A program made the position numbers and the translations under genes. A DNA stretch of 64,000 bases from Escherichia coli (lineage in GTDB: Bacteria > Pseudomonadota > Gammaproteobacteria > Enterobacterales > Enterobacteriaceae), in NCBI RefSeq assembly GCF_003018255.1, contig NZ_CP027440.1; one strand, written 5' to 3'. The notes below the pieces were generated by a model. That model did not search any database. It worked only from the letters and a program-made list of their open reading frames with translations, and was not told the origin of the DNA. Of this stretch, positions 59,590 to 59,755 are shown one piece after another (within the stretch, counting starts at the first letter, position 1; every line of letters begins with the position of its first letter).

Positions 59590-59755
59590 GCCCGACAGAA
59601 TCGTTACTCTCTCCCATCCGGACTCTAACCGTCGGCCCCGGAATTACACCGGATCTGCTGTCCTTTGAGTTCGCACCCAAAGCGCTCGCGGGCTTTCAAC
59701 TGAGTTGATTTACCGCCGGTGGGGAATTTCGCCCCGCCCTGAGAATAAGCGGATT
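59590..59755 (-). promoter_or_regulatory. FMN riboswitch (RFN element) in the ribB 5' leader
   Basis: Minus-strand reading contains the conserved RFN blocks ...TTCTCAGGGCGGGGCGAAATTCCCCACCGGCGG... and ...CCGGGGCCGACGGTTAGAGTCCGGATGGGAGAGAGTAACG upstream of the ribB start. Confidence 0.8.

Follow-up and report, generated by a model that had tools for sequence, protein, structure and literature searches.

The FMN riboswitch in the 5′ leader of Escherichia coli ribB: anatomy, conservation and proposed mechanism

The stretch of DNA analysed here (64,000 nucleotides, hereafter the window) is part of the Escherichia coli chromosome. The locus of interest comprises ribB, the product of which is 3,4-dihydroxy-2-butanone-4-phosphate synthase (TIGR00506), and ubiK, encoded on the opposite strand (Table 1). 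Since ubiK is divergent from ribB, the riboswitch described below is part of the ribB transcript alone. For an E. coli genome that is 100% identical, RefSeq gives the gene order zupT, yqiD, ribB, the riboswitch, ubiK, glgS, yqiJ and yqiK. The 501 bases around the element are 100% identical to several sequenced E. coli isolates; they are present in 5,425 of 5,426 complete E. coli genomes, with at least 99% identity in 5,424 of them. One complete genome gave no match to the ribB leader region and one matching record fell below 99% identity. In addition, the leader region is duplicated in at least one complete E. coli genome, and one copy is plasmid-borne.

Other RNA elements were found elsewhere in the window. 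A full-length match to the ES173 sRNA (RF02753) scored 99 bits against a gathering score of 90. Downstream of yqiK, a full-length Sib antitoxin RNA (RF00113, 149.8 bits) lies opposite an open reading frame for a 19-residue hydrophobic Ibs-type toxin (MMKLVIILIVLLLVSFAAY), and from their sequences the two are assigned as a type I toxin-antitoxin pair. One copy of this pair is visible before the window ends at 64000; in K-12 the locus presumably carries two tandem copies (sibD/sibE).

Table 1 Features of the ribB leader region and other elements of the window. Leader positions (n) are counted from the +1 nucleotide.
Feature	Window coordinates	Strand	Basis or description
ribB CDS (217 aa), regulated gene	58845..59498	-	TIGR00506, 286 bits (cutoff 177); RefSeq name ribB
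ubiK	59872..60171	+	Open reading frame corresponding to UbiK
Putative sigma-70 promoter of ribB	59757..59785	-	-35 TTGCTG (59785-59780), 17-nt spacer, -10 TATAGT (59762-59757)
+1 of the ribB transcript	59750	-	Numbering of Eschbach et al. 2024; n corresponds to window position 59751-n
FMN aptamer (RFN element), helices P1-P6, n1-149	59602..59750	-	RF00050, full model
Linker hairpin, n157-170 (CGGG CAUGGA CCCG)	59581..59594	-	Covariation in alignment A1
anti*-P1 3′ strand, n175-183, CGUUAUUUU	59568..59576	-	Published positions (PMC11571811)
C-rich, G-poor stretch, n~171-230, candidate Rho-loading region	59521..59580	-	Includes conserved block ACUCCUAAGACUGCCCUG
GCCCUGA box, n210-216, candidate anti-sequester partner	59535..59541	-	Pairs with UCAGGGC n9-15 (P1 5′ end and J1/2)
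Sequestering hairpin, n213-225 (CUGAUUCUGGUAA) with n248-261 (UUACCAUGAAUCAG)	59490..59538	-	RNAfold; 65/65 orthologues
Probable intrinsic terminator of ribB	58774..58814	-	13-bp stem AAACCGAAGUUGU/GCUUCGGUUUUU, 6-nt loop, U-rich tail (RNAfold after the stop codon)
Sib antitoxin RNA	63217-63366	-	RF00113
Ibs-type toxin open reading frame	63232-63291	+	Opposite the Sib RNA
ES173 sRNA match	12102-12165	+	RF02753

The segment 57000-62000 was scanned against all 4,227 Rfam families. The sole match above its own gathering score was to RF00050, the FMN riboswitch aptamer or RFN element, with 120.9 bits against a gathering score of 66.2 and E = 8.6e-29. The match spans positions 1-138 of the 138-position model and is not truncated; it was also recovered when the whole window was scanned (E = 1.1e-27). 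Within it, 65 of the 66 upper-case consensus positions are identical, the single mismatch being a U to C change at n20 in the P2 loop, and 27 of the 28 consensus base pairs are canonical, the exception being a G.A at the base of P4. Six helices (P1-P6) are arranged around a central junction, with P1 formed by n3-10 and n139-146, and the conserved nucleotides of the junction and loops are present. The element lies on the sense strand in the 5′ leader of a riboflavin biosynthesis gene, the ribB start being located 103 nt downstream of the aptamer.

A sequence-only reading had placed an FMN riboswitch at 59590-59755, on the minus strand between ubiK and ribB, had found the conserved RFN blocks readable there, and had proposed a covariance-model scan as the check. 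That scan is strongly positive, and the match (59750..59602) lies wholly inside the proposed interval, which extends 5 nt beyond it on the 5′ side and 12 nt on the 3′ side. Strand and placement agree as well, as does the identity of the downstream gene. The same reading had taken the element for a known one; indeed, for the 100% identical genome, RefSeq lists a feature "riboswitch / FMN riboswitch" whose coordinates are precisely those of the Rfam match. We therefore identify the element, at a probability of about 97%, as the FMN riboswitch that precedes ribB in E. coli, within an mRNA 5′ leader of 252 nt. This element is already known, experimentally characterised and publicly annotated, and there is nothing new in its presence here. 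Its leader RNA has been reported to bind FMN, with Kswitch values of about 0.06-0.2 uM in nascent transcripts (PMC11571811), and an FMN photoaffinity probe labels the riboswitch RNA in live E. coli, in competition with roseoflavin (PMC9204756).

Orthologous leaders were collected by an exact-pattern scan with the conserved 3′ aptamer segment, using one genome per species, which gave at least 120 loci. Among the matches listed, these loci range from Enterobacterales to Vibrio, Alphaproteobacteria, Chloroflexota and Actinomycetota, and 77 distinct leaders are followed directly by an ATG-initiated ribB. Alignment A1, drawn from the matches listed, contains the window sequence and 64 Enterobacterales leaders (65 sequences). 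Across the helices of the aptamer and of the sequestering stem described below, 92.9% of the cells hold standard pairs, as compared to 37-54% after displacement of the 3′ partners by 1-3 columns. Double changes affect 20 pairs (13.7 in shuffles) and 257 cells (76.8 in shuffles); 0 of 500 shuffles attained either count. Compensatory changes were found in all five pairs of the P3 extension, in 7 of the 8 pairs of P4, in 2 of the 5 pairs of P5 and, sparsely, in P2. P6 does not vary at all; changes in P1 affect chiefly one of its strands, and just one cell is compensatory. As judged from the alignment, covariation among orthologues is real in P3, P4 and P5.

The leader was numbered from published nucleotide identities, namely C175, G176 and U181, with G residues at -11 and -10 of the 175 pause (PMC11571811). 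Every offset from 59700 to 59800 was tested against C175, G176, U181, G164 and G165 and against the published anti*-P1 pairs. Only a +1 at 59750 satisfies all nucleotide identities together with 9/9 anti*-P1 pairs, and this position coincides with the 5′ end of the Rfam match. The A of the ribB AUG is then n253.

A consensus scan for promoters and terminators returned no promoter and no canonical intrinsic terminator in the ribB leader. The hexamers TTGCTG and TATAGT upstream of the +1 agree with the consensus at 8 of 12 positions and are absent from the scan list because the scanner threshold is 9/12. The motif TTGCY-17-TATAGT keeps a constant distance to the +1 in 34 of the 35 relatives checked, whereas the bases on either side of it have drifted, and we infer from this pattern that TTGCTG-17-TATAGT is the ribB promoter. 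The sole exception is Pantoea sp. IMH (L060), in which the motif is missing at the expected distance; its ribB riboswitch may have a different promoter or a rearranged upstream region. At the other end of the transcript, the same scan missed the stem-loop that probably terminates ribB (Table 1).

Downstream of the aptamer, the expression platform contains a predicted hairpin that would sequester the start region. The AUG is located within its 13-bp stem and the Shine-Dalgarno sequence GUGAGG (n237-242, 59514-59509) in the enclosed loop; RNAfold gives -16.7 kcal/mol for n205-275. The stem is 100% paired in 65/65 A1 leaders, altered only by A-U to G-U changes that affect two of its pairs. Coding (Met-Asn-Gln) additionally constrains its 3′ strand. 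On the other hand, its 5′ strand is non-coding, and in A1 the adjoining linker is free to vary in length as well as in sequence, so that the invariance of this strand argues for constraint. Among the matches listed, the architecture persists in 13 more distant leaders, in which the upstream strand co-varies with the start region. UCAUCAUAA pairs with UUAUGAUGA in two of these leaders (L087 and L048), and CUCCC pairs with a GGGAG Shine-Dalgarno in a third (L024). In the experimental work on this RNA, ligand binding blocks translation initiation through sequestration of the Shine-Dalgarno and AUG, and in the presence of FMN, n215-227 and the P1 3′ strand are protected against RNase H, the Kswitch being about 0.2 uM (PMC11571811).

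In the FMN-free state, n175-183 pairs with the P1 3′ strand (n141-149) to form the anti*-P1 helix (PMC11571811). All nine pairs can form in the window, and the segment CGUUAUUUU contains the published pause sites C175 and U181. Folding of the first 150 nt with RNAfold yields P1 in full (8/8 pairs), whereas the ligand-free minimum free energy (MFE) structure of the whole leader loses P1 and contains anti*-P1 (9/9 pairs). A fold in which the aptamer is enforced is 16.7 kcal/mol less stable than this ligand-free structure, a difference that leaves the ligand and tertiary energy uncounted. In A1, anti*-P1 is pairable in 91.4% of the cells, without covariation above shuffles.

A candidate partner for the other strand of P1 is the GCCCUGA box. 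In the ligand-free MFE structures at 230 and 247 nt, a range bounded by the second pause, n9-15 is paired with n210-216; this pairing overlaps the 5′ strand of the sequester. It is pairable in 99.4% of A1 cells, yet invariant. For both this helix and anti*-P1, the Enterobacterales sequences are too invariant for covariation tests to decide. Farther afield, and among the matches listed, 17 of 18 distant ribB leaders carry a CCUGR box (3.8 expected), which in 15 of the 18 lies within 60 nt of the AUG (1.7 expected). Among the FMN riboswitches without ribB as a neighbour, the box occurs in only 6 of 38 (11.3 expected). In the published ON state, the aptamer 5′ and 3′ extremities are both engaged in helices, and anti*-P1 precedes anti-P1 (PMC11571811). 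Taken together, the enrichment of the box in ribB leaders and this description indicate that the n9-15/n210-216 pairing is most probably the published anti-P1 stem rather than something new. Within Enterobacterales, the sequester, anti*-P1 and anti-P1 helices are thus backed by invariance or compatibility, not by covariation.

A heptamer, GAUUCUG, occurs twice in the E. coli leader, at 59601-59595 (about n149-155, just after P1) and at 59536-59530 (n215-221, in the sequester 5′ strand). It was considered as an alternative partner of the start region and dropped, the first copy not being conserved across genera in A1; the duplication is probably coincidental.

At equilibrium, the predicted probability of being unpaired is 0.02 versus 0.01 for n213-225, the sequestering hairpin being predicted with or without the aptamer, and 0.43 in both cases for the Shine-Dalgarno sequence. 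As the states do not differ at equilibrium, thermodynamic folding alone does not explain the switch; within the limits of this model, the ON/OFF decision must be kinetic or rely on contacts absent from it. This is in line with the kinetic, co-transcriptional sensing seen experimentally, where FMN is sensed efficiently at the 175 pause and poorly at 247, the pause at n247-249 adjoining the ribB AUG (PMC11571811). The whole leader is not more stable than shuffled sequences (z = -1.22 for its MFE), as expected for an RNA that has alternative folds.

Ligand binding also lowers the amount of ribB mRNA, through Rho-dependent termination in the expression platform once rut sites are exposed; both the rut sites and the Rho termination sites lie in this platform (PMC11571811). 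In a rho R66S mutant, transcriptional control of ribB is lost, the termination score being 3.1 (PMC5499598). Computationally, neither the rut site nor the Rho termination sites could be pinpointed in the ribB leader. In the window, C exceeds G by 3 to 7 in all 30-nt segments starting at n171-201, and the block ACUCCUAAGACUGCCCUG within this stretch is conserved in A1. Such a composition is suggestive of an approximate rut region at n171-230.

Between the aptamer and anti*-P1, a short hairpin (n157-170) stands out in the linker. In A1, 79.6% of its cells are paired, against 32-58% with slid partners, and it shows 17 double-change cells as compared to 6.1 +/- 2.1 in shuffles, with 0 of 500 shuffles as high. 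The covariation support in the alignment is moderate. Its 3′ base is 11 nt upstream of the published U181 pause site. We found no explicit description of a linker-hairpin module in the ribB leader literature accessible for this study. Conceivably, but with a probability that we put rather low, the hairpin could be a distinct conserved functional module of enterobacterial ribB leaders, either a hairpin-stabilised pause signal that sets the FMN-sensing window or a stabiliser of the 3′ end of the SroG RNA introduced below. If true, this would refine the known mechanism and would not constitute a new kind of element. The loop of the hairpin also holds the ATG of a 46-residue open reading frame (59589..59449, minus strand) that overlaps the ribB start in another frame. 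It was considered as a leader peptide and rejected because of this position of its ATG and because no more than 10 of 65 orthologues retain that codon; the frame is almost certainly not genic.

The short attenuated transcript of the ribB leader has been named SroG, and the leader itself is called sroG, an sRNA name, in the plasmid and engineering literature. This nomenclature raises the question of whether the main role of the locus is to produce a stable trans-acting sRNA from the terminated leader that would regulate other genes, with the cis control of ribB being secondary. Rho termination inside the leader would indeed leave a short structured transcript, the 3′ end of which could be stabilised by the conserved linker hairpin and the U-rich run that follows. 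However, no target or seed region of SroG is known or was found in this analysis, the experimental literature consulted on the ribB leader describes cis regulation only, and all the conservation seen is explained by cis elements, namely the aptamer, the alternative P1 partners and the AUG-sequestering stem. We consider a primary role in trans very improbable.

The same hairpin bears on the manner in which transcription would stop. As in Bacillus subtilis ribD, control could rely purely on an FMN-dependent intrinsic terminator, made here of the linker hairpin (n147-177) and the U-run (n177-183). A co-varying GC hairpin does precede CGUUAUUUU by a few bases, this segment extends to 7 U's in many relatives, and the pauses at C175 and U181 are close by. 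However, the consensus scan found no canonical terminator in the leader, which argues against such a mechanism; 7 nt separate the U-run from the solid stem, and only 4 U's are contiguous in E. coli. Moreover, the run serves as the 3′ strand of anti*-P1 in the FMN-free state and is thus occupied in the ON rather than in the OFF state, and the literature attributes the transcriptional component to Rho, control being lost in the rho mutant (PMC5499598). A purely intrinsic mechanism is in our estimate even less probable than a main role in trans. Finally, a chance resemblance or a decayed RFN-like relic devoid of regulatory function has a negligible probability, given a score nearly twice the gathering score (E = 8.6e-29), 65/66 conserved positions intact, at least 99% identity in 5,424 genomes, compensatory changes in orthologues and direct experiments on the ribB leader RNA (PMC11571811, PMC9204756).

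The reading that we favour is thus an FMN riboswitch that controls ribB in cis. In the mechanism that we propose (Table 1), RNA polymerase would start at 59750 and transcribe the 149-nt aptamer first. If FMN is bound while the polymerase is still in the leader, up to the n247-249 pause, P1 (n3-10/n139-146) would be locked, leaving n213-225 free to pair with n248-261. The AUG would then be buried in the 13-bp stem, with the Shine-Dalgarno sequence in the loop, and translation would not start; in addition, Rho would load on the exposed C-rich leader and terminate transcription early. Without FMN, the P1 3′ strand would be captured by n175-183 (anti*-P1), and the P1 5′ strand together with J1/2 by the GCCCUGA box at n210-216 (anti-P1). 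The ribosome-binding region would remain open and RibB would be made from the ribB mRNA. In this scheme, membership of the aptamer family, the coordinates and anatomy of the parts, the fold predictions and the extent to which helices are conserved and co-vary were computed here; binding of FMN, repression of translation, dependence on Rho and the pause sites are taken from the literature; and we infer the promoter, which segment pairs with P1 as anti-P1, and where the rut region lies.

The window element is the same as the E. coli K-12 ribB FMN riboswitch, or sroG (RF00050; Hollands 2012, Pedrolli 2015, Eschbach 2024). C175, G176, U181, G164/165, the 141-149/175-183 pairing and the AUG pause all map with a single offset, the gene neighbourhood matches, and there is no difference of substance. 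With ribD of B. subtilis (ribDEAHT), the ribB riboswitch shares the RF00050 aptamer, the FMN ligand and an OFF logic in which P1 is stabilised. The expression platforms differ, being an intrinsic terminator/antiterminator in B. subtilis ribD (PMC11571811) and an AUG-sequestering stem with Rho-dependent termination in E. coli ribB. In this respect, ribB resembles the E. coli thiM and thiC TPP riboswitches, which belong to another aptamer family and bind another ligand: in these too, translational sequestration is coupled to Rho-dependent termination (PMC5499598, PMC11571811), and the ligand is sensed within a span of transcription delimited by a pause close to the start codon. The access of Rho is proposed to be controlled directly by the riboswitch conformation in ribB, whereas in thiM the control is indirect, via blocked translation (PMC5499598).

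Overall, the biology of this riboswitch is already established, and its identification in the window advances no open question. The result is useful as a positive control: the strand and the leader of ribB are fixed by it, the assignment of the window to the E. coli chromosome is confirmed, and a riboswitch is shown to be recognisable from raw sequence. The element itself is of wider interest in two respects. The ribB FMN riboswitch is a validated antibacterial target, addressed by roseoflavin and ribocil-type compounds, and it is a model for co-transcriptional ligand sensing and for the control of Rho by a riboswitch.
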